The notes: a model not told the origin generated them from the sequence alone. Shown: positions 17,930 to 51,612, counted from the first letter of the stretch. The stretch: DNA of 64,000 bases from Candidatus Woesearchaeota archaeon (GCA_016188155.1 JACPIH010000002.1:68655-132654), one strand, 5' to 3'. Translations and numbers: made by a program.

Positions 17930-17956
17930 AACAGCCAGGCATGTTAGGAAGACTTA

Positions 17957-20136: not shown

Positions 20137-20153
20137 AGAGAAAGAAGGGCTAT

Positions 20154-21221
<1,068 letters not shown>

Positions 21222-25591: not shown

Positions 25592-26284
25592 TCAAATTGG
25601 TTGTTGCAGCTTTTCCGCTGCCACAGAATTTGCCGATTGGGGTTCGCTGACTTCTTTAATCCTCTCATGCAAATATGATGCTATGAGATGGTGCACCATG
25701 AGGTGGCAGCTCTCTACCCTGCCATAATGGTTTGATTTCACAAGGACCGTATGGTCTGCTATGTTCATTAACTTTCCGCCATCAAAGCCGAGCAAGGCAA
25801 TGGTCTTGGCCCCAAACTTCTTGGCAAGCTCAACTCCCTTAATTACGTTTGGGGAATTGCCGCTTCCGCTAATGGCAATGACAACATCACCCTTATTTAC
25901 ATAATGGTTGAGCTGCTGGGAAAACATGTCATCATACGAAAGGTCATTTGCAAAAGCCGTCATTAAGGCAACGTTATCGGTCAGGGATATGACGCGAAAG
26001 CGCTTTTCCGTGTGGTCATAGACCCTTTGCAAAGTGCCTTTTGCTATGTCACAGGCGAAATGGGAGGCTGTTGAGGCACTCCCGCCATTCCCGAAGATAA
26101 AGACCTGCTTGCCTTCTTTCCATGCGTCGAACAGTACATCTACAACGTGCTTTACATCTTCAGGACGTATCGAGTCCATGTCTTTTTTCTCTTGTTCGAT
26201 GTAGTTCCTTATGTATTGGACCATTTTTGTCAGGCAGCTGGCAGCAGGGGCATGTTTAAAAATTTTGTGATAGCCAAGCCGCAC
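25592..26284 (-). CDS. gmhA: SIS-domain sedoheptulose-7-phosphate isomerase-like (GmhA-type)
   Basis: VFIFGNGGSASTASHFACD…ISGSGNSPNV…LLGFDGG…CHLMVHH matches short GmhA pattern. Confidence 0.7.
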   Translation of the reverse strand: MRLGYHKIFKHAPAASCLTKMVQYIRNYIEQEKKDMDSIRPEDVKHVVDVLFDAWKEGKQVFIFGNGGSASTASHFACDIAKGTLQRVYDHTEKRFRVISLTDNVALMTAFANDLSYDDMFSQQLNHYVNKGDVVIAISGSGNSPNVIKGVELAKKFGAKTIALLGFDGGKLMNIADHTVLVKSNHYGRVESCHLMVHHLIASYLHERIKEVSEPQSANSVAAEKLQQPI

Positions 26285-26335
26285 CGCCGCATCCCTGAGC
26301 TATTAGTAACTTAATAGTGGTCAAATATGGAAAGG

Positions 26336-26343
26336 TTTATAAA
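26336..26343 (+). promoter_or_regulatory. archaeal-type TATA box (TTTATAAA) about 27 nt upstream of ATG 26367
   Basis: Sequence and spacing; implies leaderless transcript. Confidence 0.4.
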
Positions 26344-26366
26344 GCGTGGTTGATGCTTCAGTTTTG

Positions 26367-27563
26367 ATGGGTATGACTTTAGACTTGTGCGTTGTTGGAG
26401 CTGGGGAATGCTACGAAAAATATTTCTTGCCAGCCGACAGGCTTCTCAGGGAGCATGGTATCGCGGCCATCCGAACAGTTATTGACGTGAAAGACCCTGC
26501 AGGTGTCCGCCTCCCTACTGGCGCAGCTTATCTCAAACGCCGGGAACCGCAGCAGCCACTTGACCAATTATTAACAGGTACAAAAAACGATATTGTAGTT
26601 CTTGCACATTCAAATGATTTCCATACGCCTGACGCAGAAGAACTCGTCCGCCACGGTTACAAGGTTGTTGTCGAAAAGCCTTACTCAGTTAACTTAGGGG
26701 AATTATCAAGGTTGCAAGCTTTGGTACAAAGCGGAAATCTCGGTCTCATCGAATATTACTTGTTTGGAAAGACGCCACAGCTCCACATACTTTCAGGAAC
26801 AATCCCTCCAGATTCCTTTTTTCTTACCACGCCAGGCCTGTTGAAAGGCGATGTTGCAGAATTAAGACAAAATGCTGGGCGATTGCAGGACATAGTTGGC
26901 AAAGTAAACTATGTTCAAATACAGTTCTTGGAAGGCGCAAACGACACTGGCAGCCTAATGCATCGGCATGACAGCACAAGCATTGCAAGCTTAGGCGGCG
27001 GTACAATTAGCGATGATGCAATCCATTGCTTTGCAATTGTCACGTCACTGGAGCACGTAATGGGCAAGATAACAGAACTAAACTCTGTCAAGGCTGCCGT
27101 GTGCCAGGAGCATCAGCAGCATTTTATGGGAAAAGGTTACAAGGCCGTGGATGTTGCTGAAACATACGCGAGCATTCGGCTAAGCGCTGGCGATGTCCCC
27201 ATCAGCTTTACCGTCGGCAAATACGTCCTTGGGTGGCCTAACAATGGCAGGAACCATCGCAACCTCCTAATAGTTGGCACTAACGGGAAGATAGATGTTG
27301 ACCTTTCAAGTTGCACCATGGCAGTCTATGAAGGCGATTCGGTAGAGCCGCGATGGAAAGTTGGCGTTGAACGCGAGCAGTTCCCAAGATACTACGCTGT
27401 TGTCCGGGCGGCGATAGAAGGGTTTGATGGCAAATTCAAAAGCCTCACGCCAACAATTCTGGAAGCCCAGGCCCATGTGCTTGAATCAGTTGATGTTGCG
27501 AAGCGCCAATACGGCAATATGCCTGCATACCCGGCAGGCGCAGAAGCACACGAAATTCAATAA
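26367..27563 (+). CDS. Gfo/Idh/MocA-like NAD(P)-dependent oxidoreductase (possible sugar oxidoreductase)
   Basis: VVVEKPYSVNLGEL motif; ATG 26367 preferred over GTG 26346 because TATA box 26336-26343 lies about 27 nt upstream. Confidence 0.5.
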   Translation: MGMTLDLCVVGAGECYEKYFLPADRLLREHGIAAIRTVIDVKDPAGVRLPTGAAYLKRREPQQPLDQLLTGTKNDIVVLAHSNDFHTPDAEELVRHGYKVVVEKPYSVNLGELSRLQALVQSGNLGLIEYYLFGKTPQLHILSGTIPPDSFFLTTPGLLKGDVAELRQNAGRLQDIVGKVNYVQIQFLEGANDTGSLMHRHDSTSIASLGGGTISDDAIHCFAIVTSLEHVMGKITELNSVKAAVCQEHQQHFMGKGYKAVDVAETYASIRLSAGDVPISFTVGKYVLGWPNNGRNHRNLLIVGTNGKIDVDLSSCTMAVYEGDSVEPRWKVGVEREQFPRYYAVVRAAIEGFDGKFKSLTPTILEAQAHVLESVDVAKRQYGNMPAYPAGAEAHEIQ

Positions 27564-27668
27564 ACAGCGGAAGGCAGGGCTATAAGTTCTGGGTTATCGC
27601 GCAGAAAGCGAAATGAGAACAGTTTTGGAAGCGCAAACTTTATAAAATCCGGTGAAAATGGCTTTTTC

Positions 27669-28322
27669 ATGATGGAAGTAAATCTTTTGGATTTGTATCC
27701 AAAAACCAAGCGTAATCCGGACGAACGTGCCGAAACTATAAATGATGAAGACAAGAGAATTGCAAAACAGTTTGGCAAGGAATTTTTTGATGGCTCCAGA
27801 AATACGGGTTACGGGGGCTACAGGTATGATGGCCGGTGGGTTCCGGTAGTTGAGCGCTTTGCCCAGCACTACGGCTTAACCGCAGGCAGCTCAGTTCTTG
27901 ACGTTGGCTGCGCAAAGGGGTTTATGCTGCACGACTTTCAGAAGGCAGTCCCGGGCATTACCGTCGAGGGCATTGACATTTCCCAGTATGCGATTGACAA
28001 TGCTATGGAGGGCGTTAAGCCGTTTCTTCACGTTGGTAATGCAAAGGACCTTTCCAGCTATGGCGATAAGTCTTTTACCCTGGTGGTCTCAATTACCACG
28101 GTTCACAATCTCAGGCTTGCAGACTGCAAAATGGCCTTAAGGGAAATCCAGCGTGTTGGCAAGCATGCCTTCATAACCGTAGATGCGTGGCGCAATCCTG
28201 AAGAGGAAGCCAGGATGAAGAAGTGGAACATCACGGCAGAGACTTTCATGCATGTTGATGACTGGAAAAGGCTATTTGATGAGGTTGGCTATACGGGGGA
28301 TTACTACTGGTTTATTCCCTGA
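27669..28322 (+). CDS. class I SAM-dependent methyltransferase
   Basis: VLDVGCAKGFML…EGIDIS motif I/II. Confidence 0.7.
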   Translation: MMEVNLLDLYPKTKRNPDERAETINDEDKRIAKQFGKEFFDGSRNTGYGGYRYDGRWVPVVERFAQHYGLTAGSSVLDVGCAKGFMLHDFQKAVPGITVEGIDISQYAIDNAMEGVKPFLHVGNAKDLSSYGDKSFTLVVSITTVHNLRLADCKMALREIQRVGKHAFITVDAWRNPEEEARMKKWNITAETFMHVDDWKRLFDEVGYTGDYYWFIP

Positions 28323-28350
28323 ATAAATTCTTGAATAAACGTGAAGCAAG

Positions 28351-29412
28351 ATGAGATTTAAAGCAGCTGTTCTTTACGAACAAAACAAGCCTTTGGTAAT
28401 TGAGGAGCTTGAAACGCAAGCGCTTGGGCACGGCCAGGTACTGGTGAAAATTCTCTACAGCGGCATTTGCCAAACGCAGGTTAACGAAGTAAAGGGCATA
28501 AAGGGCCCTGACAAGTACATACCTCACTGCCTTGGCCACGAAGCGTCAGGCATAGTTCATGAAATCGGCCCCGGCGTAACCCGTATCAGGCCGGGTGATT
28601 ACGTTGTTCTGTCATGGATAAAGGGCCCGGGCCTTGAAGTCCCATCAATGCAATATTTGCGGGGCGCCTCTAAAATAAACGCTGGCGCAGTAACCACATT
28701 TAACACGTTTTCCGTGGTTTCGGAAAACCGCATTACTAAAATTCCAAAACAGGTTCCAGCTGACGTTGCTGCGCTGCTTGGCTGCGCTGTCCCTACCGGT
28801 GCGGGAATGGTGAAGAATACCCTAAAAGCAGAGCCTGGCAGCAGCATTGCAATTTTCGGGCTTGGCGGTGTTGGGCTGAGTGCCGTATTGTTCGCAAGTG
28901 CGGTTGGCTGTGCCAAAATTATTGCTGTTGATATTCACGACTCAAAACTGGAGCTTGCGAAAAAGCTTGGTGCGACACATGTCATAAACAGCGCCAATGA
29001 GCAGGCTCTGGAAAAAATAAGGGCACTCACCGGGGGACTTATTGGGTCCGGTGCCGATTATGCAATTGAATCTTCTGGAGTAAGAGAGGTAATGGAGCTG
29101 GCATTCGAAGCCGTAAGATTCGGCGGCACCGCTGTGCTTGCAGGCAATATACGAAAGGGAGACAAGATTGCCATTGACCCGTACGCCCTTATACACGGGA
29201 AAAAGATTATTGGGACATGGGGCGGCGAAACTCGTACCGATGAGGACATACCTTTCTATGCCGAACAGTACTTGCAGGGCAAATTGAAAATTGACCAGCT
29301 AATTACGCACCGCTACAAACTTGAGGATATTAATGCGGCATTTACAGAACTTAAAGATGGCACTATGGGCAGGGCGCTGATAAAGCTTGGCGAAAAGCCT
29401 GATGAAGCGTAG
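28351..29412 (+). CDS. zinc-dependent alcohol dehydrogenase-family (MDR) oxidoreductase
   Basis: CLGHEASGIVHEIGPGVT…; GLGGVGL Rossmann. Confidence 0.75.
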   Translation: MRFKAAVLYEQNKPLVIEELETQALGHGQVLVKILYSGICQTQVNEVKGIKGPDKYIPHCLGHEASGIVHEIGPGVTRIRPGDYVVLSWIKGPGLEVPSMQYLRGASKINAGAVTTFNTFSVVSENRITKIPKQVPADVAALLGCAVPTGAGMVKNTLKAEPGSSIAIFGLGGVGLSAVLFASAVGCAKIIAVDIHDSKLELAKKLGATHVINSANEQALEKIRALTGGLIGSGADYAIESSGVREVMELAFEAVRFGGTAVLAGNIRKGDKIAIDPYALIHGKKIIGTWGGETRTDEDIPFYAEQYLQGKLKIDQLITHRYKLEDINAAFTELKDGTMGRALIKLGEKPDEA

Positions 29413-29445
29413 CTAGCGTGGTTGCTTAGGAAGTATAACGAGAAT

Positions 29446-30291
29446 TTACGGTGCGTTCCTGTGCCTTCTCAACTTGTACATGTTGCTGTCGGACTTAAGC
29501 TCGGCAGCCAATAAGCTGCTTTCTGCGCCTTTCCACTTGTCGTGAACTACTGAAAAGTTCCTGCCGCTTGCTACGCCTCTCCCTTGGGCTTGCAGCCAAT
29601 TGATGCACCCGTAAATGTCATCCATACTTGTGCCTCCACCCTCCTGCTTCATAAACTCAACAGTTTTTTGGTAATTAATGGCACCAGCCCTTTCCTCGCC
29701 AGCCTCAAGCGTTTGGTAATGCGTTTTGCTCTTTGTCCAGCCAGGCCCCACAATGAATACGTTAAGGTCTTTTGCTTCATCATCCAACAGTTCGCACATT
29801 TTTATTAACATTATTTTTGAAGCCACATAAGCGGAGTAATTCGTGAATGGGTTATTAGCTCCAGGACCGGCAAAGAAGACAGCAGCGGCGCCTGTTTTAT
29901 TTCTATACGGGTAAAGGCCGTGCAGCACGCGCAGCTGTTCTATCGCGTTTACATGAACAGACTCGCTCCAATAGTCAAAATCAATGTCAAAGAATTTGCC
30001 TATCGGGTTTGGGGTGCCGGCACACGAAATAAAAATGTCCCAAGGAAGGTTCAGGGCAGCATACGCCTTCAAAAACGCTGATACCTGCTCTTTTTTGGCA
30101 ATATCACAAGGGAACAAACGGCAGTTCGGCAGCTTTTTAAGGCCATTGAGATGCTCTTCAGAGCGGTAAGTTCCTATTATCGCATACCCGTCTCTAGCGT
30201 ACCTAAATGCCAGTTCCCTGCCTATGTCACTGCTAATGGAGCTTAAAACTACAACCTTAATGGTAGACATGCTAGCCATGTTTGGAGACAA
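29446..30291 (-). CDS. short-chain dehydrogenase/reductase-like protein
   Basis: YSAYVASK (YxxxK) active-site motif; degenerate N-terminal Gly motif. Confidence 0.5.
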   Translation of the reverse strand: MSPNMASMSTIKVVVLSSISSDIGRELAFRYARDGYAIIGTYRSEEHLNGLKKLPNCRLFPCDIAKKEQVSAFLKAYAALNLPWDIFISCAGTPNPIGKFFDIDFDYWSESVHVNAIEQLRVLHGLYPYRNKTGAAAVFFAGPGANNPFTNYSAYVASKIMLIKMCELLDDEAKDLNVFIVGPGWTKSKTHYQTLEAGEERAGAINYQKTVEFMKQEGGGTSMDDIYGCINWLQAQGRGVASGRNFSVVHDKWKGAESSLLAAELKSDSNMYKLRRHRNAP

Positions 30292-30292
30292 T

Positions 30293-30973
30293 TTAAATCA
30301 GCCCTCCCCTTCTTGAAAGTTCTTGAAAGTCGTTAACATCTATTTTTGAAAGGCTGTCAACGATTTTGTCAGCAATGGAAACATCCTGGTTCTTTGTGTG
30401 CTCTGTGAGCAGGGCTATGCACACCATGCCAGCATTTTTCGCTGCCAAAATGCCTGTTTCGGAGTCTTCTACTACAACGCATTCGTCTGGCTTCAGCTTA
30501 AGCCTTCCCGCAACCTCGAGGTAGATGTCTGGCGCAGGCTTGGTTTTTGTTACGTCCGAGCCCGTGACTACAGTCACGAATGTGTTTCCCAGCTTCAGAA
30601 AGTTCAGGACATTCCACACCTTTGTTTTTGAGCTGCTTGAAGCCAGGGCAACAATGTAGTTGTTAGCTCTCAGCTTTGCAACGAGCTCGTGGAAGCCAGG
30701 GTTTGGCTTAAGGTTGAGTTCCTCTATGGCTTTTTTGATGTACTCCTCGCGTTTTGCCACGAGCGCTTCAAGGTCGGCTGTGACCCCGTGCTGTTTTAAA
30801 ATTTCGTCGTAAATCTGCCTTCCAGGCTTGCCTGTGTGCTTTAGGTATTCGCCTTTGCTGATGTTCAGACCAACGCTGTTCAGCACCTTTGAGTCAGCGA
30901 CGAAGTTGAGCTGCGCAGTGTCTACAACAACCCCATCCATGTCAAAGATTACGGTTTTTATCATGCTAATCAC
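30293..30973 (-). CDS. HAD-IA hydrolase (beta-phosphoglucomutase/phosphatase family)
   Basis: VIFDMDGVVVDT motif I; 226 aa. Confidence 0.8.
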   Translation of the reverse strand: MISMIKTVIFDMDGVVVDTAQLNFVADSKVLNSVGLNISKGEYLKHTGKPGRQIYDEILKQHGVTADLEALVAKREEYIKKAIEELNLKPNPGFHELVAKLRANNYIVALASSSSKTKVWNVLNFLKLGNTFVTVVTGSDVTKTKPAPDIYLEVAGRLKLKPDECVVVEDSETGILAAKNAGMVCIALLTEHTKNQDVSIADKIVDSLSKIDVNDFQELSRRGGLI

Positions 30974-31155
30974 TTCGGTTCCGGTTTCTGTGGCAGTATA
31001 TAAATTTTATTTTGTTTACATATTGGCCATGCGCTGTTTAAAGGCAGCTTAAGGGATATTTTGGGTGAAGGCGTCGCAACCGAAAACTTTAAGTATGATT
31101 GCTTAGGGCTCTTTATTAGCCATTTTTCGGATAATCATATATTGCGTTTTTGTAA

Positions 31156-32262
31156 GTGGTGGGTGAAGTCTGCGTGAGGAAACTGTTTATCCCTGGGCCT
31201 GTTCAGGTGAGCAGGCGAGTTCTGGAGGAAATGGCCAGGCCGATGATGCACCACAGGTCTGCAGAATGCATAGCAATCATCAAAGAAATTAAGGGGTTGC
31301 TGTCGGATTTCCTTTATACCAACAATGATATTTTTCTGCTGACGTGCTCTTCGACAGGTGCTATGGAAGCCAGTATGCGAAGCTGCGTGGTTGGGAGCGT
31401 GTTGTGCGTCGCGAATGGCGAATTCGGAAGAAGGTGGCATTCCATAGCTGTTTCAAACGGCAAAGAGGCAAAGCTTTTGGATTTCGGTGATGGTAAATTA
31501 ATTGATTACAGCTTGGTAGCCGAGGAGTTAAGGAAAGGCGGTTTTGACGCGGTTGCTTTTGTAGTCAATGAAACCTCTACAGGCATGGAAAACGATTCTA
31601 AAGCGCTCAAAAAGGCTGTTCAGTCTGTTTCGAAAGACATCATTATCTTGGCGGATGGCGTTTCAGCCGTGTTCGGAACTATGCTTGACATAGACGACTA
31701 CGATGTACTCCTGTTTGCAACTCAGAAGGCACTCGCATTGCCTCCTGGCATGGCTATCATAATCGCGAATGACAAGGCAATTGAGCGTTCGAAGGCTGTT
31801 AAGGACAGGGGGTATTACTTTGACTTTCTTAACCTGAAAAAGCGGAGCGACGAGAACATGACCATAACAACGCCAGCCCTGCCCATAATTTACGCCCTAA
31901 GGTATCGCCTGCAAGAGATAAAGAAGCACGGCATTAACAGCTACATTGAGAACCACAATGCCAAGGCTGAGCTTGTCCGCAAGGAAATTCGCAAAATGGG
32001 CTTCGGGCTTTTCGTGCCAAGCAGCTATTCAAACACAGTCACTGTTATTTCCAACAACCTTGGCATTGACGTTGAGAAACTGATCAGGCTTCTTGGCGAA
32101 AAAGGATTCGCTATAGAAAACGGCTATGGCCCGTTGAAGAACAAAACATTCCGCATAAGCCACATGGGCGATATCACTTCCGAAGATACTAAGCAGTTGT
32201 TAAAAGAAATGGGAAAAATAATCAAAACTCTAACGTCTGAGCATAAGCATGAAACAGGTTAA
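31156..32262 (+). CDS. class V (PLP) aminotransferase, serine-pyruvate/alanine-glyoxylate family
   Basis: LFIPGPVQVSRRVLEEMARPMMHHRS N-terminus typical of class V AT. Confidence 0.65.
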   Translation: MVGEVCVRKLFIPGPVQVSRRVLEEMARPMMHHRSAECIAIIKEIKGLLSDFLYTNNDIFLLTCSSTGAMEASMRSCVVGSVLCVANGEFGRRWHSIAVSNGKEAKLLDFGDGKLIDYSLVAEELRKGGFDAVAFVVNETSTGMENDSKALKKAVQSVSKDIIILADGVSAVFGTMLDIDDYDVLLFATQKALALPPGMAIIIANDKAIERSKAVKDRGYYFDFLNLKKRSDENMTITTPALPIIYALRYRLQEIKKHGINSYIENHNAKAELVRKEIRKMGFGLFVPSSYSNTVTVISNNLGIDVEKLIRLLGEKGFAIENGYGPLKNKTFRISHMGDITSEDTKQLLKEMGKIIKTLTSEHKHETG

Positions 32263-33316
32263 GGTTTTTGCACCTGCGACTATAGCAAATATTGGTCCAG
32301 GGTTTGACATATTTGGGGTCGCGCTTTATAATATCGGCGACGTTGTAGAAGCAAGGTTAACTGATTCTTTTAAAGGCGTTAGGCTGGCAGAGGTAACGGT
32401 TGCGTCTGACAGCGCAGGCGTTAAAGACATGCCTAAGGATGAAGGCAACCTTGTTTTTCCTGTTGCCAAGCTCATCTACGAGGCAATTGGCAATCATGAA
32501 GTTGGGGTTGAAATCAGGCTTGTCAAGAGGATGGGCATAGGAACAGGGCTTGGCAGCAGCGCCTCAAGCTCTGTTGCTTCTGCTGTTGCAGTTAACGAGG
32601 TGCTTGGCGGTATTTTAGCCCGTGATAGCGTGAAGATGCTGGCTGCTGTTATTGAGGGCGAGTACATTGCTTGCGGCTCAAGGCACGCTGATAATGTTTT
32701 TCCAAGCCTGCTCGGCGGTTTAGTCTTTGTTGAAGACGCTGCCTCTTTTAAGTTCAAAAAATTCGGGGTTGGAAAGGACGCGTTCTTTGTCATTGCCTCT
32801 CCCGACTTGGTTGTGAGCACTCGAGAAGCCAGGGAAGCCCTGAAGGCTTCGCCTTACAACATTAAGGAGCTTGTAAGGTTTTCAAGCTCAACTGTAAAGC
32901 GCTTCATTGAATCTGGTACAGGCAGCCGCTTTAATGCCCAGATACCGGATTCTGTAGTGGGCAGCGGCTCAAGAAGCGTTGTCAAGGCCTACATTGAGGG
33001 AACTCTGGATGTTTTAAGCGGGCTGCTTAATAATGATGTTGAAGCGCTAGGCAGGGGCACGCTGAAGGATGGCATTGTGACGCCTGTGCGTGCCAAACTG
33101 ATTCCGGGTTATGATGCAGTTAAGGAGGCTGCACTTGGGGTAGGTGCCAAGGGCTTCTCTATATCCGGCTCAGGCCCTTCTGTTTTCGCAGTTGCTTACA
33201 AGGAAGACTGTGAGAAAGTGAAAAATGCCATGTTGGGCGCTTTTGAAAGGCACAAGATAACGGCAAAAGGGCACATTTCTGCAGTGAACAACAACGGCGC
33301 CTTGGTTGTTGAGTAA
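32249..33316 (+). CDS. GHMP-family kinase (homoserine-kinase-like N-terminal motif)
   Basis: VFAPATIANIGPGFD and MGIGTGLGSSASS GHMP motifs. Confidence 0.6.
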   Translation: MKQVKVFAPATIANIGPGFDIFGVALYNIGDVVEARLTDSFKGVRLAEVTVASDSAGVKDMPKDEGNLVFPVAKLIYEAIGNHEVGVEIRLVKRMGIGTGLGSSASSSVASAVAVNEVLGGILARDSVKMLAAVIEGEYIACGSRHADNVFPSLLGGLVFVEDAASFKFKKFGVGKDAFFVIASPDLVVSTREAREALKASPYNIKELVRFSSSTVKRFIESGTGSRFNAQIPDSVVGSGSRSVVKAYIEGTLDVLSGLLNNDVEALGRGTLKDGIVTPVRAKLIPGYDAVKEAALGVGAKGFSISGSGPSVFAVAYKEDCEKVKNAMLGAFERHKITAKGHISAVNNNGALVVE

Positions 33317-33445
33317 AGGAATAACGTCTGCTTTGAAACTTTGAAATCTTGCTGTCCCTGTTTGTTGTTGCTGTTTTCATACGTAGAAATATATTTAAAG
33401 AAAGGCTTTTAGCTGCATTCTCAGCTGTAGATTATCAGGTTAAAA

Positions 33446-35218: not shown

Positions 35219-35330
35219 CTGGGCTTACCGCAAACAATATAAATTTATAAAGTCAGTTCAATGTGTAATTCAATGTGTAATGATAAGCTGATGCTGTAAG
35301 CTAAGGCTAAGTTGTGAATGGGCTGCTGGG

Positions 35331-36473
35331 ATGGATTTACTTGTTGCGAAGGGAAGGGACCTTAAGAAGGAGGAGTTTCATGACAAGCATGAGGCTTTTA
35401 CCGACAAGGCATACGCGGATGGCGACCTGCTGCCTGACAGGTATGTGTTTGTGCTCACCAACCTCTGCAACCTAAGGTGCAGTTTCTGCTTTCAGAAAAA
35501 GGACCCCAGGAAAGATGCCATGACTACCGAGGGCTGGATTAGCCTTGCAAAGCAGCTTCCTGAATACGCCAGGGTGACAATGACAGGCGGGGAGCCGTTG
35601 GCGTTTCGCGGCTTTAAAGAAGTGTTTTCCTACGTGGCTGAGCGTTTTGACTGCAACATGGTTTCAAACGGGTTGCTCTGGAAGGAGGAATTGGTTGATT
35701 TTGTCCTCTCGTATCCAAAATTCAGGGTGCTTTCCATTTCGATAGACAACATTGGCAACACGCTGAGGGACGTGAGCCCCAACCAGTGGAAGCGAGCTGA
35801 AGAGATGATGAGGTACTTTGTTAAAAAGCGGGATGAGCTCAATTCCGGCTGCGTGCTGGAGGCCAAAACAGTAGTGCTGGATGATAATGCCGAGGATTTG
35901 CTTGCAATTCACAAATACTGCATTGAAGAGCTTGGCTGCGACCACCACTCCTTCCAGTTTCTGAAGGGCTCGCCAATCCAGCACGCTGATTTTATGTTCC
36001 AATTTGAGGATATTTTGAAAGAGTCCCATGCCGTTACTTACAAAAAATTTGATATCATAAAGCAGCAGTTGGATCTGGTAAGAAAGTACAACCTTAAAAC
36101 AGGAAAGGTTGCCTTCTCGCACCCCATCATCGGCTCGTTGATGTCAGAAAATCCCCTTCCGAACATTTCATACCTGAATGAGAGCAGGCACATTAAGGGA
36201 AATTACATGCCCTGCAAATTTCCGTGGTCAAGCGTGCATATTAATGTTGACGGAAACCTTTTTCCGTGCATGGCAGTTTCAATGGGAAATGTTAAGGAAA
36301 CTCCCCTTCGTGACATAATATTTGGCGAGCAGTTTACGAGGTTTAAGCGGCTTATAAGGGACGAGGGCACTGTTGAGGGGTGTAACCGCTGTGGCTGGCT
36401 AAGGCCAATTCCGAACCTGCGGCAGCAGGAGCCGGAAAAGCAGGTGCAAGTGGCTGTGTCGGAAAGTGAATGA
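35331..36473 (+). CDS. radical SAM protein with SPASM/twitch-like C-terminal Cys cluster
   Basis: CNLRCSFC (CxxxCxxC); C-terminal CKFPW…CMAV…GCNRCGW. Confidence 0.75.
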   Translation: MDLLVAKGRDLKKEEFHDKHEAFTDKAYADGDLLPDRYVFVLTNLCNLRCSFCFQKKDPRKDAMTTEGWISLAKQLPEYARVTMTGGEPLAFRGFKEVFSYVAERFDCNMVSNGLLWKEELVDFVLSYPKFRVLSISIDNIGNTLRDVSPNQWKRAEEMMRYFVKKRDELNSGCVLEAKTVVLDDNAEDLLAIHKYCIEELGCDHHSFQFLKGSPIQHADFMFQFEDILKESHAVTYKKFDIIKQQLDLVRKYNLKTGKVAFSHPIIGSLMSENPLPNISYLNESRHIKGNYMPCKFPWSSVHINVDGNLFPCMAVSMGNVKETPLRDIIFGEQFTRFKRLIRDEGTVEGCNRCGWLRPIPNLRQQEPEKQVQVAVSESE

Positions 36474-36476
36474 TTT

Positions 36477-37379
36477 ATGCCAAAGAAAGTTGTTATTCTT
36501 GGCGCGTCTGGATTCGTCGGCGGCTGGCTGCTGAAGCGGTTCCTGTCAGATTCGCCGTATACGGCGGTTGGTTACTCATCTGCGGATTGCAACCTGCTCT
36601 CCCCGGGCTCGATTCGCAAAGCACTGTCATCTGTCACTTCAGAAGACGTTATCGTTATGCTGTCGTGCATTACACGCCTTAGGGAAAATTCGTTTGAGTC
36701 CATGCTTAAAAACATCAAGATGGCAGACAACATTGCCTGTTTTGTCGAGAGCCATCCTGTGTCCCATTTTATTTACTTTAACACTGTTGACGTTTATGGG
36801 CTGATTCCGGAGGGGACTGTTATAAGTGAGAGTCTTCCGCCAAATCCGCATGATTACTACTCAATTTCCAAGCTTACAAGCGAGTTTATTCTTAAAAAGG
36901 CGTTATCGGAGAAGAATATACCTTTCCTTTCGCTGAGGTTTTCCGGAATTTACTGCCCTGGCGATGAGGGAAAAAGTACTATCAACGCCTTGTTATATTC
37001 CCTTTTTGACACAGGAAAAATCACAATCTTCGGTGACGGGAAGAGTACCAGGGATTTTGTATACGTTGATGACGCTTACAGGATAGTGGAAGAGGCTGTC
37101 AAGCGGCCATTGAACGCAACTGTGAACGTAGCTACCGGGAAAAGTTATTCAATTCTTGAAGTAATAGAAACCATTAAGTCATTAATCGATAAAAAATTCA
37201 CTATCGAGTTCAAGCCAATAGACTCCAAAGCCGAGAAAAGGCAAGGGAATATGGTGCATGATATTTCCCTCTTTCAGAAGTTGTTTCCCAATTTCGTTTT
37301 TACAAGCCTTAAAGCAGGACTGTCCCGGAACATCAAGCACATTACAAGCATTACGAGCATTACAAGCAAAAAAGATTAA
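36477..37379 (+). CDS. NAD-dependent epimerase/dehydratase family protein
   Basis: KVVILGASGFVGGWL; YYSISK; C-terminal ITSITSITS encoded by 9-bp tandem repeat. Confidence 0.65.
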   Translation: MPKKVVILGASGFVGGWLLKRFLSDSPYTAVGYSSADCNLLSPGSIRKALSSVTSEDVIVMLSCITRLRENSFESMLKNIKMADNIACFVESHPVSHFIYFNTVDVYGLIPEGTVISESLPPNPHDYYSISKLTSEFILKKALSEKNIPFLSLRFSGIYCPGDEGKSTINALLYSLFDTGKITIFGDGKSTRDFVYVDDAYRIVEEAVKRPLNATVNVATGKSYSILEVIETIKSLIDKKFTIEFKPIDSKAEKRQGNMVHDISLFQKLFPNFVFTSLKAGLSRNIKHITSITSITSKKD

Positions 37380-38533
37380 ATCCTGTCAAATTCCTTTTTC
37401 AGTTCTGCGTAATTTTTGCATGTAACGTCAATGTATGCGGCACCAACATTTTTTGCAAACAACGCATCATCTTCGCTATCGCCTATTATGACGACCTTGT
37501 CAAAATCGCTGATGCTTATTCGCAACTCTTGAAGAGCATGGAGGAGCATACTAGGGCTGGGCTTCCTTCTCGTTTTTTTCTTTACAAAATCCGGATTGAA
37601 TTTAACTTCTTTTCGCAGGGCAGCATAGCTTGCATCAGCATCTGGGCAGTACTGCCAGCTGTCTATTGCAATCCCTTCTTCTTTCAATAACTTGCCTATG
37701 TGCCTGTTTACTTTTTCCACAGTTTCTGTGCCAAAATAGCCCCGCGCAACCCCTTGCTGGTTTGAAATTACCACCTTGACCGTGTCGTATTTTGTTTGTA
37801 CATAGCTGATAAGGTTGGTAACGTCTTTTTTTAGCCTTATCTGCTTTTCCCATAGCTTCTCTTTGCCGAGGAATGGCACATTTTCTATCAGGGTTCCGTC
37901 CCTGTCTATTCCCAACAGGAGCTTTTCCCGCTTTACTTTTTCCTGTATGTACCTGATTACATCTGTTGTCGACAGCTTCTCGTCATTTGTGTACCTGATT
38001 TCACCGCCTGCTGAGGTTATAGCCTCCCTCTCTGCGGTAATTCCTGGCGTTGTCTTGCCTATGAAATCTGGGCCTTTTATGTAATAAGACGGCTTCAGCT
38101 TTTCTATTACCTCAGTTGCACGCTCGAGGTCGCTGATAAACACGTAATCGACATACTCAATGCTTGCAACAGAGTAGGCCCGCAGTTTCTCTGAAAAGAT
38201 TGGCCTGCCGCTGCCTTTCCTTGCCGCCACGAATCTGTCCGAAGTCACAGATACGAAAAGACAGTCACACAGTTTTTTTGCTGACTCAAAGTGTTTAATG
38301 TGACCCGGATGCAAAAAGTCAAAGCCGCCGGCGCAAAGGCCTGCTTTTTTGTTTTGCCTCTTCAATTCAGAAATCCTCTTGGCCGCCGTGCCTATATCCA
38401 CTATTTTCTCAGACTTGAATTCATCAGTGTTTGCTTTCATAGTCTCCCAATCATCTTTCCTTGTCACTTTTGGCCGCCACCGCTTCAGCTTCCGAAATAA
38501 GCTCTGAAGAACATCTTCGGTATTGCTATGCAA
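37376..38533 (-). CDS. bifunctional protein: N-terminal cytidylyltransferase-like nucleotidyltransferase (RfaE/HldE domain II-like) fused to C-terminal HAD-IIIA GmhB-like heptose-bisphosphate phosphatase
   Basis: GGFDFLHPGHIKHFESAKKLCDCLFVSVTSD (HxGH nucleotidyltransferase); LLGIDRDGTLIEN, RKPSPSML, IGDSEDD (HAD-IIIA/GmhB); alternative start ATG at 38440 avoids overlap with upstream gene. Confidence 0.65.
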   Translation of the reverse strand: MHSNTEDVLQSLFRKLKRWRPKVTRKDDWETMKANTDEFKSEKIVDIGTAAKRISELKRQNKKAGLCAGGFDFLHPGHIKHFESAKKLCDCLFVSVTSDRFVAARKGSGRPIFSEKLRAYSVASIEYVDYVFISDLERATEVIEKLKPSYYIKGPDFIGKTTPGITAEREAITSAGGEIRYTNDEKLSTTDVIRYIQEKVKREKLLLGIDRDGTLIENVPFLGKEKLWEKQIRLKKDVTNLISYVQTKYDTVKVVISNQQGVARGYFGTETVEKVNRHIGKLLKEEGIAIDSWQYCPDADASYAALRKEVKFNPDFVKKKTRRKPSPSMLLHALQELRISISDFDKVVIIGDSEDDALFAKNVGAAYIDVTCKNYAELKKEFDRI

Positions 38534-39195
38534 ACCCCAATAATGTTCTTTACCCTGAAAATGTTTGTCGCCGAGCCCTCCTCCTCCTGAATCAGCACTG
38601 GCACCTCAAGGTAAGAATGCTTCTGCTTGCTCTTAAGCAACTGAAGTAATACCTCTGCATGAAAAGCAAAGCTGCTTGTTGTTATTTTAACCTGCCTGGC
38701 CAGGCTGAGCTTATAAAGTGCCAGGCCGTTATAGTACTTTACGTTCAGGCCAAATAGTAAATTCAGCATGGTTGTATAAAGGGTTGAAACAAGTCTCCTT
38801 ACAATTGGCCTTACTTCAGGATTCATAGTATAGGAATTCAGAATGTCGGCATCACCTATCCTTCCAAGCATCCGCGCAATAGATTCTGCCGGTATTCCGT
38901 TATCGCCTGTCAGCAACATAATGTATTCTTTAGTGGCAAGCCTTATGGCTTCCCTGTACACCGCACCCGGCCCGCGGTTCGTTTTAAAATGAACTACCCT
39001 TATTCTTGGGTTCCTTTTGGCAAAATCTTCTGCAATTGCGCCTGAACTGTCCCTGCTACCGTCGTCAATTACGATTAGCTCATAATCAGCAACAAAGCGT
39101 TTTACAGTGTCATTTATAGTTGTAATTGAGTTGCCTAAGTTACGCTCCTCGTTGTAGGCTGGTACTATCAGGGTTATTGATGCCGCTTTTTTCAT
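38485..39195 (-). CDS. glycosyltransferase family 2, dolichyl/polyprenyl-phosphate sugar synthase-like (Dpm1/ArnC-type)
   Basis: ITLIVPAYNEERNL…LIVIDDGSRD…; 236 aa; paralog of 47754..48536. Confidence 0.75.
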   Translation of the reverse strand: MKKAASITLIVPAYNEERNLGNSITTINDTVKRFVADYELIVIDDGSRDSSGAIAEDFAKRNPRIRVVHFKTNRGPGAVYREAIRLATKEYIMLLTGDNGIPAESIARMLGRIGDADILNSYTMNPEVRPIVRRLVSTLYTTMLNLLFGLNVKYYNGLALYKLSLARQVKITTSSFAFHAEVLLQLLKSKQKHSYLEVPVLIQEEEGSATNIFRVKNIIGVCIAIPKMFFRAYFGS

Positions 39196-39307
39196 GCTTG
39201 CCCAATCTCAGAATGATTTTGCGAAGCTTTAAAAACTTTTTTGTGGCATTTGCCACGTTAAAAAGGCCTTTCCAGCTTCTTATTATTATGCTGTCACATA
39301 GTCATAG

Positions 39308-41191
39308 TCATATTTTGTATATCCTTATTCTGTTCCTATGGTACAGCAGATTGGCTTGAGCTTCGTCCTCTGTCAGGTTGTGCACCAACGTAATGGCTTT
39401 GCTGCCATTAATGGTGTTTCTGTATATGTCAAATAAGTCATCATTAATTAGGATGTGACTGATGTTGAGATCCTTCAGCCGCCTTAATAAGTCTGTAGTA
39501 TTGCTCATGCTCCAGTAGTCGATGTAATTCTGGTGGGGTGAGCTTATAACGTATTCCCTGTTTAGGAAATAGCCCCTTGGCTCGTTAAACAGCAGCACTA
39601 CAGAATCTGGTGTTGTGTTGGCATTTATCCAGGAAGCTGCGCCGTGAGCGTTGTAGTCTTTAAGCTGGTCATAGTATTCACCTTCACTTTCTCCAGACAA
39701 AAAGTAGTTGACACTCTTCGCGTTTATACCATACCATATTGCGGCATTAAATGCTAGCGAAACTATAAGCATCAAGAAAATGGCTGCTTTTAGTATCCTA
39801 TACTTGGACATTGAATCAATAACCATGGCTGTGGCCGCGCTTAACAAGGCTATTCCTGGGAACATGTACCTCAGCACAGGGTGGACCCAGAACTGTACCA
39901 TAAGGATGGCCGTGGCCATTACAAAGATTATGCTCCACGCTCTTATGTCCTTAACACCCTTGTAAAAGAAAATCAGCAGGGGTATTATCATGATGAAGAA
40001 TGGCGTGAGACCGATAACGGTGCCAAACGGCTTGCTGTTGAAGGTTATGTTCCAGTGCACAAGCAGGACGTTGGCCATGTTTTTGCCAAGGCCGACATAC
40101 TTATGATACGCTTCGTACGCGATGTCGTGCGAGGGCAAAAGGTAGTTCCCGCCAAAGATGCTGTGGCCTAAGGGGTAAACAGGGTTGCCTGTGTGAATGT
40201 AGCTTCTTGCGAGCCAGGGCATAGTGAGAAGCAGCACAACAGCAGCCAGCAGGAAAATCTCGATGCACGCTTGTTTTACGTTGACCTCTTTCTTGTACAG
40301 CAGCCTCGACAGCACCATGCCTATTACAAAGGCAAAGGCAACAAAGACGCCTGTCAGCTTTACAGCCGTTGCTAATCCTATCAGAATTCCGCATAACAGC
40401 GTCAGCAAAATTCTTCGGCGGCTGTCACTTTCATGGGCGTACTTGAACAGGACCAGGACAGCTGCGAGGAAGAAGTAAGCCACGCTTATGTCAACCATTG
40501 TCTGCGGCAAGCGCTCAATCATCACAGGCGCTGTAAAAAAAAGCAGAACCCCTGTTATCGCTGCTGATTCTGAGCTTTTTTTCCTGATAAGCGCGTATAT
40601 CGCGAGGCTAGCGAGGATGCCGAACGAGTAAGCTATGAGGGGCGAAAGATTTGGCGTTGAGAAAAGCTCTGAGATTGTGTACAGCATCGTCATGCCTTGT
40701 GGCATCGTTGTGTACATCTGGCTTGGCTGGTAAACGAGGCTGTGGCTACCGGCGTACACTTTCGCAAACGCGAGATGGTAAACCATTGAGTCAAACTCGT
40801 ACACTGGCGAAAGGGCGGGGATAAAGTTGATAAGTACGAAAAATATGCACGCGAGGAGCAGCACGCCAGCCAGGGTTGGCTTTAGCGTTTGCCTAATGTA
40901 TTTGCCAAGCAACATGGCAAGCTGGCAGAAGCGCTTTACTTCTTTGAAAAAAAGCACAACAGCTACTACGGCCATTGCGATGTAAAATCCACTGTAAAGC
41001 AGCTTGAACGTGCCTAGCAGGATTGTCAGGTTCATTATAACGCCTGCCCCTAATGCAACGCTGATGAGAAATTCCTCAAGTTTGCCAAGGTCTGTTTTGA
41101 ATATTGCAAGTATTCTCCTGCCGATGCTAAAAGTAACCACTAAAAATATGAGCAGCATGGTAAGGCTTACAATGGAAATTAGCAAAGACAA
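39308..41191 (-). CDS. GT-C fold membrane glycosyltransferase (ArnT/PMT-like, GT39/GT83-type), TTG start in current frame
   Basis: 627 aa, about 12 TM helices then about 180-aa C-terminal soluble domain; no WWDYG (not STT3/AglB). Confidence 0.55.
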   Translation of the reverse strand: MSLLISIVSLTMLLIFLVVTFSIGRRILAIFKTDLGKLEEFLISVALGAGVIMNLTILLGTFKLLYSGFYIAMAVVAVVLFFKEVKRFCQLAMLLGKYIRQTLKPTLAGVLLLACIFFVLINFIPALSPVYEFDSMVYHLAFAKVYAGSHSLVYQPSQMYTTMPQGMTMLYTISELFSTPNLSPLIAYSFGILASLAIYALIRKKSSESAAITGVLLFFTAPVMIERLPQTMVDISVAYFFLAAVLVLFKYAHESDSRRRILLTLLCGILIGLATAVKLTGVFVAFAFVIGMVLSRLLYKKEVNVKQACIEIFLLAAVVLLLTMPWLARSYIHTGNPVYPLGHSIFGGNYLLPSHDIAYEAYHKYVGLGKNMANVLLVHWNITFNSKPFGTVIGLTPFFIMIIPLLIFFYKGVKDIRAWSIIFVMATAILMVQFWVHPVLRYMFPGIALLSAATAMVIDSMSKYRILKAAIFLMLIVSLAFNAAIWYGINAKSVNYFLSGESEGEYYDQLKDYNAHGAASWINANTTPDSVVLLFNEPRGYFLNREYVISSPHQNYIDYWSMSNTTDLLRRLKDLNISHILINDDLFDIYRNTINGSKAITLVHNLTEDEAQANLLYHRNRIRIYKI

Positions 41192-41197
41192 AGGCAG

Positions 41198-41302
41198 TCA
41201 CCTCAGGTAGTATGCAATTATTTCAAATGCCTTCACCCAGTAGTAGGCGAGAAAAACAATAACCATCCATAACAACGCAAGAACTAAGCCAGCCCTTTTC
41301 AT
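41198..41302 (-). CDS. 34-codon hydrophobic micro-ORF in frame with downstream GT-C gene (separated by single TGA)
   Basis: ATG 41302 … MKRAGLVLALLWMVIVFLAYYWVKAFEIIAYYLR, TGA 41200-41198, then CTG CCT TTG(start of GT-C); TATA box about 27 nt upstream. Confidence 0.3.
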   Translation of the reverse strand: MKRAGLVLALLWMVIVFLAYYWVKAFEIIAYYLR

Positions 41303-41323
41303 TTCGCCTTTGGCAAGAACGGG

Positions 41324-41333
41324 CTTATATAAA
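41324..41333 (-). promoter_or_regulatory. TATA box (TTTATATAAG on minus strand) about 27 nt upstream of micro-ORF ATG 41302
   Basis: Sequence and spacing. Confidence 0.4.
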
Positions 41334-41411
41334 CTTAATGCTCAACTTAACGCCTGCCCGCAAAGGCAAAGGCACAAATAACTCTTTCAAGCAAGCCGGC
41401 AAAATAAATAG

Positions 41412-41421
41412 CTTTAAAAAG
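41412..41421 (+). promoter_or_regulatory. TATA box (CTTTAAAAAG) about 29 nt upstream of PfkB kinase ATG 41445
   Basis: Sequence and spacing. Confidence 0.35.
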
Positions 41422-41444
41422 AAAAGTATTGTTCCTTTTTTGAA

Positions 41445-42494
41445 ATGGATAGGGCGAAAGCAGAAGCTATTGAAAGAATAAGGTCACAGTATTCACTCGA
41501 GCGTTTAAAACAAATGCTTGATAAATTTAGAAATTTGAAAATCCTGGTGATTGGCGATGCCATCATAGACGAGTATCATTTCACTACCCCGAAAGGCAGG
41601 GCAGTAAAGGACCCTATCCTTTCTGTCGACTACATTAAGCACGAGGCCTATGCAGGTGGAGTGTTTGCCATAGCAAACCACTTGAGTGATTTTGCAGATA
41701 GCGTTACTTTGCTTACAATGCTTGGAGACAGGGACGACAGGAAAGATTTTATTGCCAACGCACTCAACAAGAATATAGTTACTAAATTTTTTGTCAAACA
41801 AAATTCTCCTACGACAGTTAAAAAGCGGTATTTGAATGCCCTTCGAAATGAAAAGCTGTTCAAGGTCGAATACCTAAACGATGCCCCCATATCGGAGGAA
41901 CTTGAAAGAAGCATACTCAACTTCTTGATTGAGGAACTGCCTAAATTTGACTTGGTCGTGGTAGGTGATTTTGGCCACAGCCTCATTACAGAAAACATGA
42001 TAAACGTGTTGGAGGGAAAATCAAATTACATCACCGTAAACGTCCAATCCAATAGTGCAAATCTCGGTTTTAACTTTGTTACAAAGTATAAATCCCCAAA
42101 TTACGTCACTATGGACATACCTGAGCTTCAATATGCCGTGTCTGACAGATTCAACGAAGTGCCTGTGCTGGCTGCAAAGCTTTATGCCAAGACGCGTTTC
42201 AAAAAATTTTTGGTAACAATGGGCGGGGCCGGCGCTGGCTACTTCAATGCGGGCAGACCAACATTTTTCCCTGCATTTGCGAGCAGGCCGCTGGACGTTG
42301 TTGGCGCTGGCGATGCGGTTTTTTCCATTACCTCACTGCTCGCTTACTGCAATTACGATGAGCTAATACCATTTATTGCCAATTGTGTTGGCGGCATTGC
42401 CGTTTCCTACATGGGAAACAAGGAGTACATAACAAAAAAGAAGCTGCTTGACTTTATTGAGCAAGTTTACAACGGGGATGTTCATATGCAGTAA
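41445..42494 (+). CDS. PfkB-family carbohydrate kinase, RfaE/HldE domain I-like (candidate heptose-7-phosphate kinase)
   Basis: ILVIGDAIIDEYHF…AYAGGVFAIANHL…; C-terminal VVGAGDAVFS (GAGDA PfkB motif). Confidence 0.6.
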   Translation: MDRAKAEAIERIRSQYSLERLKQMLDKFRNLKILVIGDAIIDEYHFTTPKGRAVKDPILSVDYIKHEAYAGGVFAIANHLSDFADSVTLLTMLGDRDDRKDFIANALNKNIVTKFFVKQNSPTTVKKRYLNALRNEKLFKVEYLNDAPISEELERSILNFLIEELPKFDLVVVGDFGHSLITENMINVLEGKSNYITVNVQSNSANLGFNFVTKYKSPNYVTMDIPELQYAVSDRFNEVPVLAAKLYAKTRFKKFLVTMGGAGAGYFNAGRPTFFPAFASRPLDVVGAGDAVFSITSLLAYCNYDELIPFIANCVGGIAVSYMGNKEYITKKKLLDFIEQVYNGDVHMQ

Positions 42495-45429: not shown

Positions 45430-45441
45430 ATAGCACCAAAT

Positions 45442-47642: not shown

Positions 47643-47753
47643 CGGTTACGGGCGATTACGCTTCGTATATTAATCTTTTGGTTAGCATTGGAAAAAACAA
47701 AAGCTTTTAATAAGATAATTTGGCGAACATGCCCAAATGGAAAGGGGGCATTT

Positions 47754-48536: not shown

Positions 48537-48543
48537 ACTGAAT

Positions 48544-49476: not shown

Positions 49477-49529
49477 TTTTGTTTTATTTATTCGTATGTT
49501 TTTAACCTTTGCTACTGCAGCTTATTCTG

Positions 49530-50282: not shown

Positions 50283-50289
50283 CCCTCAT

Positions 50290-51591: not shown

Positions 51592-51612
51592 ACTGCTGCC
51601 GAACACCAAACA

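Follow-up and report, generated by a model that had tools for sequence, protein, structure and literature searches.

The stretch analysed here, a 64 kb window of a Candidatus Woesearchaeota archaeon (positions are counted from its first letter), very probably encodes a complete four-step pathway from sedoheptulose-7-phosphate (S7P) to nucleotide-activated D-glycero-β-D-manno-heptose, with the chemistry deduced from the encoded proteins. Five independent lines support this core claim: family profiles, comparison with sequences in the PDB, a structural model of a fusion protein, the gene neighbourhood and gene fusions. They agree with a preliminary description of the same DNA, which held that three loci together supply the isomerase, kinase, phosphatase and nucleotidyltransferase (NTase) required for nucleoside diphosphate (NDP)-heptose. 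The three genes are the following.

25592..26224, minus strand: GmhA-like SIS isomerase (step 1); the deposited protein has 210 amino acids (aa) and the maximal open reading frame (ORF) reaches 26284.
41445..42494, plus strand: HldA-like PfkB kinase (step 2), 349 aa, identical to the deposited protein and divergent from the GT-C/GT2/fusion operon described below.
37376..38467, minus strand: fusion protein, with an HldC-like NTase (residues ~40-180, step 4) followed by a GmhB-like HAD-IIIA phosphatase (~185-363, step 3).

In the proposed pathway, the SIS protein would isomerise S7P to D-glycero-D-manno-heptose-7-phosphate and the PfkB kinase would phosphorylate C1 of this product, giving heptose-β-1,7-bisphosphate. 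The HAD-IIIA half of the fusion would then take off the 7-phosphate and its NTase half would join heptose-1-phosphate to a nucleoside triphosphate. PfkB-type HldA/HldE kinases make the β-anomer, which is therefore implied here. When the 64 kb window was searched by tblastn with E. coli HldE, GmhA and GmhB, only these three loci were matched, so that no paralogues confuse the assignment.

The SIS protein, assigned by Pfam to SIS_2/SIS, matched 22 NCBIfam families, with gmhA (TIGR00441) at the top (1e-34, 119.8 bits). The best alternative profile was HxlB, a 6-phospho-3-hexuloisomerase (6e-10), and KpsF was not among the NCBIfam matches. Phosphoheptose isomerases made up 12 of the top 13 distinct PDB sequences (1tk9 at 5e-26), two DiaA entries ranking 13th and 14th. 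Identity to E. coli GmhA is 31% over the full length. The phosphate- and sugar-binding loops are kept as GNGGS and SGNS, residues G51-S55 and S121-S124 being invariant in the SIS alignment, and the metal/catalytic positions read H/D/E/H, against His61/Glu65/Gln172/His180 in E. coli GmhA. The Asp and Glu found at the Glu65 and Gln172 positions are near-invariant across the clade, including SIS domains fused to PfkB, and a five-residue insert after position 65 (E. coli GmhA numbering) is family-wide. These substitutions would be chemically compatible with metal binding.

For the kinase, the best NCBIfam match, rfaE_dom_I (TIGR02198; 5e-35, ~121 bits), was ahead of ribokinase (7e-6) by 29 orders of magnitude in E-value, and the only strong match among PDB sequences was Burkholderia HldA (4e84, 1.5e-14; the next at 5.5e-5). 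The protein aligns over its full length with domain I of E. coli HldE, its segments VVGAGDAV and LVIGDAIIDEY falling opposite VTGAGDTV and MVVGDVMLDRY. Among 120 homologues, GAGD is kept in 119 and the N-terminal (V/I)xGDxxxD in 98. NCBI annotates the kinase as a 'hypothetical protein'. Both proteins were thus recognised correctly in the preliminary description, as a GmhA-like SIS isomerase (25592..26284) and an RfaE-domain-I-like PfkB with a GAGDA motif; they group with neither KpsF nor ribokinase, since the heptose profiles come first for both.

The third locus, described earlier as a fused nucleotidyltransferase/GmhB protein, is indeed an ORF (37376..38533) joining these two types of domain; the called gene starts with GTG at 38467 and encodes 363 aa. 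The N-terminal half belongs to CTP_transf_like, with rfaE_dom_II (TIGR02199) as the best NCBIfam match (3e-30, 104.9 bits) and TagD, the glycerol-3-phosphate cytidylyltransferase, as the best alternative profile (3e-9). The C-terminal half passes two HAD-IIIA subfamily cut-offs (TIGR01656, 86.9 vs 84.15 bits; TIGR01662, 71.9 vs 44.6 bits) and its PDB sequence matches are GmhB-type phosphatases. An AlphaFold model computed with 20 homologues had a mean predicted local distance difference test score (pLDDT) of 90.5. Using Foldseek against the PDB, the top three hits of the N-terminal domain were all B. pseudomallei HldC (5xf2, E = 7e-11, target-normalised TM-score 0.77-0.80), while the best hits of the C-terminal domain were GmhB structures (2gmw, 3l8e and 3l8h, E from 8e-10 to 1e-8) with E. 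coli GmhB at the top. These HldC and GmhB folds outranked HisB-N, choline-phosphate cytidylyltransferases and TagD. Motifs are strongly conserved among the 120 closest homologues: HxGH, which reads HPGH in the fusion, and D[RK]DG[TV] are found in 120/120 and RKP in 119/120, and HxGH, DRDGT, NQxGxARG and RKP as they stand in the fusion are kept in 117-120/120. Within the fusion alignment the HAD motifs DRDGT, SNQQGVARG, RKP and GDSEDD are invariant or near-invariant. At the STTR5 Arg position the fusion has Leu, and L, F or M occupy it in 105 of 109 relatives. Compared pairwise with E. coli HldE, GmhB and GmhA, the NTase and HAD halves, the kinase and the SIS protein are 23-31% identical over full domains.

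Several observations weigh against equating these proteins with the canonical enzymes. No protein reached the curated cut-off of its heptose family: the SIS protein scored 119.8 vs 209.45 bits (TIGR00441 equivalog), the kinase 121.1 vs 345 (TIGR02198), the NTase half 104.9 vs 181.5 (TIGR02199) and the phosphatase half 52.2 vs 149.6 (TIGR00213) and 60.8 vs 178 (NF006506). These scores designate a divergent subfamily rather than textbook orthologues, and we know of no assayed enzyme belonging to it. Residues also differ, and the whole family shares these departures from the E. coli enzymes. Across the SIS clade the catalytic Glu is replaced by Asp and the Gln by Glu; the heptose NTase motif (F/L)xxGxSTT reads NDEKLSTT in the fusion, in which STT is kept and Gly becomes Lys; and the zinc-binding CxH…CxC loop of E. 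coli GmhB is missing from the fusion, only its first Cys being present ('YCPD...RRKP') with no CxC. The structural neighbour 2o2x likewise has no such loop, which may therefore not define the whole GmhB family. Finally, neither a GT9 heptosyltransferase, among the window ORFs scanned, nor a transketolase supplying S7P, in the window, was found.

Scores below the equivalog cut-offs might also be expected from unrelated housekeeping enzymes that co-occur by chance, that is, a 6-phospho-3-hexuloisomerase or KpsF for the SIS protein, a ribokinase or nucleoside kinase for PfkB, a glycerol-3-phosphate or ethanolamine-phosphate cytidylyltransferase or an FAD synthetase for the NTase, and a histidinol-phosphatase for the HAD half. 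Human ethanolamine-phosphate cytidylyltransferase (ECT) ranked first overall when the whole fusion was compared with PDB sequences, with two stretches summed, and in structure HisB-N comes close to the HAD domain. However, HldC is the best match of the N-terminal half by single-domain score (46.4 vs 32.1 bits for ECT), the heptose models are far ahead in E-value for the set, dozens of genomes share the neighbourhood and the four domains are connected by three types of fusion. We regard chance co-occurrence as very improbable.

The distance of the SIS gene, 11 kb from the fusion and kinase genes in the window, also counts against a single pathway, and linkage was therefore tested in other genomes; L-numbers and P0099 are the labels of the loci compared with the window. 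Eighty loci were fetched via the NTase domain, among the matches listed, which were dominated by bacterial NTase domains. They span many bacterial phyla, Thermoplasmatota and DPANN. In 60 of them the NTase has a kinase homologue as its immediate neighbour, and a SIS gene is present in 26; two full-length fusions were among the matches listed in this contig scan. Fusion contexts in DPANN were obtained by exact-protein look-ups, which gave 11 independent genomes, 10 of them with enough context. The kinase gene stands no more than 10 kb away from the fusion gene in 9 of these 10, and six genomes have a SIS gene at that distance. Among relatives with context the closest is L093, whose fusion is 70% identical and which carries a single 8 kb array of window-type SIS, two short-chain dehydrogenase/reductase (SDR) genes, a third epimerase, E1α, E1β, fusion and kinase. 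PfkB::SIS fusions of 540-557 aa account for 35 of the 120 closest kinase homologues, one of them at L089 14915..16588 (557 aa). L096 encodes at 11119..12660 an NTase::PfkB fusion of 513 aa, in a domain order reversed with respect to HldE, adjoining its NTase::HAD fusion. With NTase::HAD, PfkB::SIS and NTase::PfkB fusions in one lineage, the four activities are linked pairwise. The Joint Genome Institute (JGI) pipeline names homologues 'rfaE'/ADP-heptose synthase and 'D-sedoheptulose 7-phosphate isomerase'.

The archaeal nature of the setting was likewise examined. The SIS, kinase and fusion proteins were all found by exact-sequence look-ups on one 142,958-bp contig labelled Candidatus Woesearchaeota by NCBI, and the local gene order is reproduced in independent Logan assemblies of five sequencing runs. 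Neighbouring genes in the window have archaeal best models (RqcH_arch, Trm14_Arch and the PRK03839 Fap7-type kinase), and the close homologues of the fusion and the kinase that bear an organism name all come from Woesearchaeota or Nanoarchaeota. GyrA and many sugar genes do have close bacterial relatives, and the SIS protein is ~60% identical to some proteins of Fusobacteriaceae and of the Candidate Phyla Radiation (CPR), as might be the case on a bacterial or chimeric contig; set against the common contig, the archaeal neighbours, the homologues and the reproduced gene order, an artefact of this kind appears extremely improbable. The contig is thus archaeal rather than bacterial, as assumed from the start. 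Of the archaeal-type neighbours named at that time, the Fap7-type kinase and Trm14 were recovered; MBF1 was not, the candidate ORFs having no family match, which leaves the heptose finding unaffected.

Inter-domain transfer had been suggested for these genes. A neighbour-joining tree of the kinases, built without support values and with a sampling biased by the way loci were fetched, places all split-type kinases far from domain I of E. coli HldE. The eight DPANN sequences fall into a single clade, whose sister is a pair of Phycisphaerae and Thermoplasmatales sequences; together they are nested among bacterial sequences, and one further Nanoarchaeota sequence lies elsewhere. This topology is compatible with an ancient transfer between domains and subsequent vertical descent in Woesearchaeota; it neither proves the transfer nor orients it. 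The enzyme set is in any case divergent and conserved across the Woesearchaeota/Nanoarchaeota lineage, and is not a recent bacterial insert. Outside Woesearchaeota, relatives of the SIS protein with ~54-62% identity are labelled Fusobacteriaceae, Parcubacteria, Magasanikbacteria (CPR) and Aenigmarchaeota, a distribution suggesting that this gene may have been exchanged among small-genome lineages.

The preliminary description further proposed that the surrounding oxidoreductases, methyltransferase, SDRs and epimerases modify the heptose. Conserved gene order supports this proposal for the first four entries of the following list only.

23501..24607 and 24504..25526, minus strand: two SDR epimerase/dehydratase genes (Pfam Epimerase/GDP_Man_Dehyd), downstream of the SIS gene.
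27669..28322, plus strand: MetW-like S-adenosylmethionine (SAM) methyltransferase (Pfam).
28351..29412, plus strand: zinc-dependent medium-chain dehydrogenase/reductase (Pfam), hereafter zinc alcohol dehydrogenase (Zn-ADH).
36477..37379, plus strand: NAD-dependent epimerase/dehydratase (Pfam Epimerase), convergent with the fusion gene, with a 4-nt overlap.
42532..43623 (β) and 43663..44640 (α), minus strand: thiamine pyrophosphate (TPP) enzyme resembling pyruvate dehydrogenase E1 (PDH-E1; Pfam, NCBIfam), with no E2/E3.
32249..33316: GHMP kinase, a ThrB-type homoserine kinase (252 bits vs a cut-off of 194).

The order SIS-SDR-SDR is kept in L092 and L093 (62-85% identity), and in L093 it runs on into E1α, E1β, the NTase::HAD fusion and PfkB. 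The two SDRs received no specific NCBIfam assignment and are candidate NDP-heptose tailoring enzymes. Homologues of both the methyltransferase and Zn-ADH are found no further than 10 kb from heptose genes in L088, L089, L091, L095, L096 and P0099; the methyltransferase is also present in L007 and L092, and Zn-ADH in the Thermoplasmatales locus L050. Homologues of the 36477..37379 epimerase adjoin PfkB or SIS genes in L089, L091 and L095. Its NCBIfam matches are weak and tied (dTDP-glucose dehydratase 55.9 bits, ADP-heptose 6-epimerase 55.6 bits, cut-off 274.6), and the other SDRs of the window are no better assigned to HldD; an HldD-like role of this epimerase is possible. Altogether, candidate tailoring genes are found again next to heptose genes in six to eight genomes of DPANN, and Zn-ADH and an epimerase also in the Thermoplasmatales locus. 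The reactions that they catalyse cannot be named from such weak and tied matches.

TPP enzymes are another recurrent feature of these cassettes. The PDH-E1-like pair adjoins the fusion gene in L088, L093 and L096 (50-86% identity), and a split transketolase-like pair stands in its place in the cassettes of L092, L095 and P0099. These enzymes could supply S7P or add a two-carbon branch to a keto-sugar. They also raise the question of whether the same enzyme logic operates on a different ketose phosphate, for instance an octulose or some other sugar phosphate, higher or modified, with the TPP enzymes providing the substrate; the lincomycin GDP-octose pathway is a precedent for isomerase/kinase/phosphatase/NTase logic on another sugar. 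PDH-E1-like or split-transketolase-like pairs and an acetolactate-synthase-like TPP enzyme recur beside fusion or kinase genes (window, L088, L093, L095, L096, P0099), all four enzymes score below curated cut-offs and active-site positions of the SIS protein differ from those of GmhA. However, split transketolases could simply supply S7P, and the cassettes of L007, L089 and L091 contain no TPP enzyme. These enzymes, missing from several cassettes, thus look accessory. Heptose enzymes are moreover the best matches at every level of comparison, and the JGI labels name an S7P isomerase and ADP-heptose synthase. Another ketose substrate is accordingly improbable to us, and S7P is retained as the likely starting point.

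Other genes accompany the heptose cassette. Between 30293 and 35218, the ThrB-type kinase, a class-V aminotransferase (PhnW/BhcA-like), the acetolactate-synthase-like TPP enzyme and a β-phosphoglucomutase-like HAD-IA hydrolase stand together, and the set is kept in another Woesearchaeota genome (L088 12154..19310) with 69-82% identity. The ThrB-type enzyme, a kinase of amino-acid type among the sugar genes of a reduced genome, might produce a decoration that is not a sugar. A GDP-α-heptose route (HddA/HddC) was considered for the window and rejected: the GHMP kinase is of ThrB type and the three NTP_transferase genes score 42-45 bits against an HddC cut-off of 300, which leaves the window without the α-route. 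In L092 (1..3400) and L093 (3925..5533), a second set of GDP-α-heptose type, made of SIS and GHMP kinase genes and in L092 also of a 164-aa HAD and an NTP_transferase, is present in addition to the PfkB-type set, and some DPANN genomes may make two differently activated heptoses. The sugar cluster of the window also contains a radical SAM/SPASM protein (35331..36473). At similar positions, L089, L091, L093 and L095 carry B12-binding radical SAM enzymes and Methyltransf_13/14 C-methyltransferases, a hint that some sugars may be C-methylated or unusual in another respect.

How a nucleotide-activated heptose might reach the cell surface was addressed from the genes surrounding the fusion, several of which resemble the Arn system for 4-amino-4-deoxy-L-arabinose (Ara4N).

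38485..39195, minus strand: soluble family 2 glycosyltransferase (GT2), 236 aa (Pfam Glycos_transf_2), proposed dolichyl-phosphate sugar synthase.
39308..41191, minus strand: GT-C membrane glycosyltransferase, PMT_2/ArnT-like, 627 aa, ~12 transmembrane (TM)-like segments.
44706..45429, minus strand: two overlapping half-size EamA proteins (130 and 119 aa, 3-4 TM-like segments), ArnE/ArnF-like candidate flippase.
45442..47642, minus strand: two DegT/ArnB-type sugar aminotransferases (Pfam DegT, 352-414 bits).
47496..48536: ArnC-like GT2 with a TM-like segment, paralogue of the GT2 at 38485.
48544..49476: SDR resembling the C-terminal part of ArnA.
50290..51615: Ugd, UDP-glucose 6-dehydrogenase.

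The 236-aa GT2 gene ends 17 nt upstream of the fusion gene on the same strand, and it is found directly upstream of the fusion in 6 of the 11 genomes (window, L006, L088, L089, L091, L095). No TM-like segment was detected in its 236 aa. Near full-length profile alignments were obtained only with AglJ (41.8 bits), PpgS (34.0 bits) and a haloarchaeal dolichyl-phosphate hexose transferase (32.9 bits), all weak, and the PDB sequence search matched ArnC, DPMS and GtrB, none of them at the top. The GT-C protein passes the Pfam PMT_2 cut-off (34.2 vs 26.1 bits) and matched no solved structure in the PDB sequence search; the identical gene in L001 carries DUF8201, and membrane proteins of 624-628 aa occupy its position in L089, L091 and L095, where EamA pairs adjoin them. 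Each EamA protein scored 37.8 bits with the NCBIfam ArnE model, below the cut-off of 92, the first protein having no other match and the second one further, weaker match, and both are 30-36% identical to E. coli ArnE over ~58 aa. In L095 the order EamA, EamA, GT-C, methyltransferase, GT2, fusion, SIS, PfkB is contiguous. In L091 a single EamA gene is called, followed by GT-C, GT2, fusion, SIS and PfkB, with no methyltransferase in between.

GT-C enzymes use lipid-phosphate-linked donors. Together with the alignments of the GT2 to lipid-phosphate-charging enzymes, this led us to propose an Arn-like delivery route. NDP-heptose, possibly tailored by the SDR, Zn-ADH, methyltransferase and aminotransferase enzymes, would be loaded onto dolichyl phosphate by the 236-aa GT2; the ArnE/F-like pair would flip the dolichyl-phosphate heptose; and the PMT_2/ArnT-like GT-C would transfer the heptose to a surface protein or glycan outside the cell. 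Such a route is conceivable from the gene content, and we put it forward tentatively. Rather doubtful is the fuller scheme, in which a heptose or an aminated, methylated or deoxygenated derivative, fed by an NTase::phosphatase specific to DPANN archaea, would bypass a cytoplasmic heptosyltransferase by way of the GT2, the ArnE/F-like pair and the GT-C. The actual substrate might also be a non-canonical sugar of higher carbon number, produced by the recurrent TPP enzymes. Among the points that weigh against the dolichyl-phosphate step are that the highest-scoring profile matches of the GT2 are generic GT-A domains covering its N-terminal half only, and that its single-sequence AlphaFold model is unusable (pLDDT 47.8).

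The heptose pathway may also be real while NDP-heptose is used directly by a cytoplasmic glycosyltransferase acting on a lipid-linked oligosaccharide, as in standard archaeal N-glycosylation, with the GT2, GT-C and ArnE/F-like genes serving another sugar, for example a 4-amino-pentose. The window indeed contains an Arn-like gene set at 44706..51615, with Ugd, the ArnA-C-like SDR, two ArnB-like DegT proteins and the ArnC-like GT2, to which the ArnE/F-like pair and the DegT genes could belong, and it further encodes a GT4, several other GT2 enzymes and a Wzx-type flippase. What stands against this direct use is the position of the 236-aa GT2 directly upstream of the fusion in six genomes and its contiguity with GT-C, EamA and heptose genes in L091 and L095. 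We consider direct use quite plausible, if short of probable. The DegT proteins are 29-33% identical to E. coli ArnB; a DegT gene adjoins PfkB in L007 and another is found in the L091 cassette, and these enzymes may aminate a keto-heptose or serve a separate Ara4N-like route. The Arn-like set in itself suggests a lipid-linked 4-amino-pentose route in an archaeon.

The remainder of the window is that of a larger glycan island. At 16233..21179 it encodes an RmlA-like thymidylyltransferase, below its cut-off, and a dTDP-glucose 4,6-dehydratase and a GDP-mannose 4,6-dehydratase, both above their NCBIfam cut-offs, from which we conclude that the island makes several deoxy-sugars besides heptose. 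The GT4 glycosyltransferase and the Wzx-type flippase (14736..16205) lie beside these genes. Large proteins with CARDB and PKD domains (4016..7300 and 10238..12601), flanked by several ORFs with no family match, occupy a low-GC stretch (0.37-0.39 vs ~0.48 elsewhere); they are probably secreted or surface proteins and candidate acceptors for the glycans of the island. A solitary 5S rRNA gene is present at 52566..52681, and no 16S rRNA, 23S rRNA or tRNA gene was found anywhere in the 64 kb. An apparent truncation of gyrA at the window end was rejected, the reading frame merely continuing past it.

The findings have biological and practical implications. DPANN archaea combine very small genomes with what is considered a host-attached way of life, and a large conserved commitment to heptose glycans in such genomes points to molecules of cell-cell contact. 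The pairwise fusions offer a clean assayable minimal set, in which two or three proteins would carry out the four steps and which could serve to make NDP-heptoses and to learn which nucleotide archaea use. NDP-heptoses are also agonists of ALPK1 in immunity.

Functional isomerases, kinases, phosphatases and NTases for NDP-heptose were reported in 2024 in archaea (e.g. Methanococcus maripaludis), viruses and eukaryotes, and the archaeal enzymes are functional in vitro (Tang et al., Science, as related in the commentaries PMC11461863 and PMC11573728). Heptose is moreover a component of the Thermoplasma acidophilum N-glycan (PMC11407970). The 'bacterial-type' label first given to the pathway is consequently dated, while the pathway and its archaeal setting stand, and the gain brought by the present locus is incremental rather than conceptual. 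The two commentaries describe three NTase architectures, single-domain, kinase/NTase and isomerase/kinase/NTase, among which neither the NTase::phosphatase of the window nor the kinase::isomerase of its relatives figures. They also relate that NTase specificity can extend to cytidine and uridine triphosphates (CTP, UTP), a promiscuity linked to an arginine (PMC11461863, PMC11573728); this STTR5 arginine is absent from the window fusion, which has Leu. The searchable literature yielded no account of heptose in Woesearchaeota or DPANN, of a GmhB/HldC fusion, or of heptose with GT-C and polyprenyl. As far as we found, no description exists of the NTase-phosphatase architecture, of the cassette shared by the lineage or of its close association with a small GT2, a PMT_2/ArnT-like GT-C and ArnE/F-like half-transporters, nor, in that literature, of a lipid-phosphate-heptose route.

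The Gram-negative pathway to ADP-L/D-glycero-β-D-manno-heptose (GmhA, HldE or HldA with HldC, GmhB) shares with the window the four predicted chemistries and the folds, and HxGH, GAGD, DxDGT and RKP are kept. In contrast, the window enzymes show only the low identities and sub-equivalog scores given above, the NTase is joined to the phosphatase instead of the kinase, the GmhA metal site is H/D/E/H and the GmhB zinc loop is absent; the window has no GT9 heptosyltransferase or clear HldD, and its host is an archaeon devoid of lipopolysaccharide (LPS). The GDP-D-glycero-α-D-manno-heptose pathway of S-layer and capsule producers (GmhA, HddA, GmhB, HddC) is alike in directing heptose into surface glycans, not LPS, but differs in its kinase and NTase, the window having a ThrB-type GHMP kinase and no good HddC; L092 and L093 do hold such a set. 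With the Arn system (ArnC, ArnE/F, ArnT), the window shares the clustering of a small GT2, two half-size EamA proteins and a PMT_2-family GT-C, whereas the sugar would be a heptose and similarity to ArnC and ArnE is low, 25-36% over partial lengths and below cut-offs. PpgS/Rv3779 and Dpm1/PMT are further lipid-carrier analogues, and the lipid-carrier step, if true, would extend the Arn/Dpm1-type delivery logic to heptoses.

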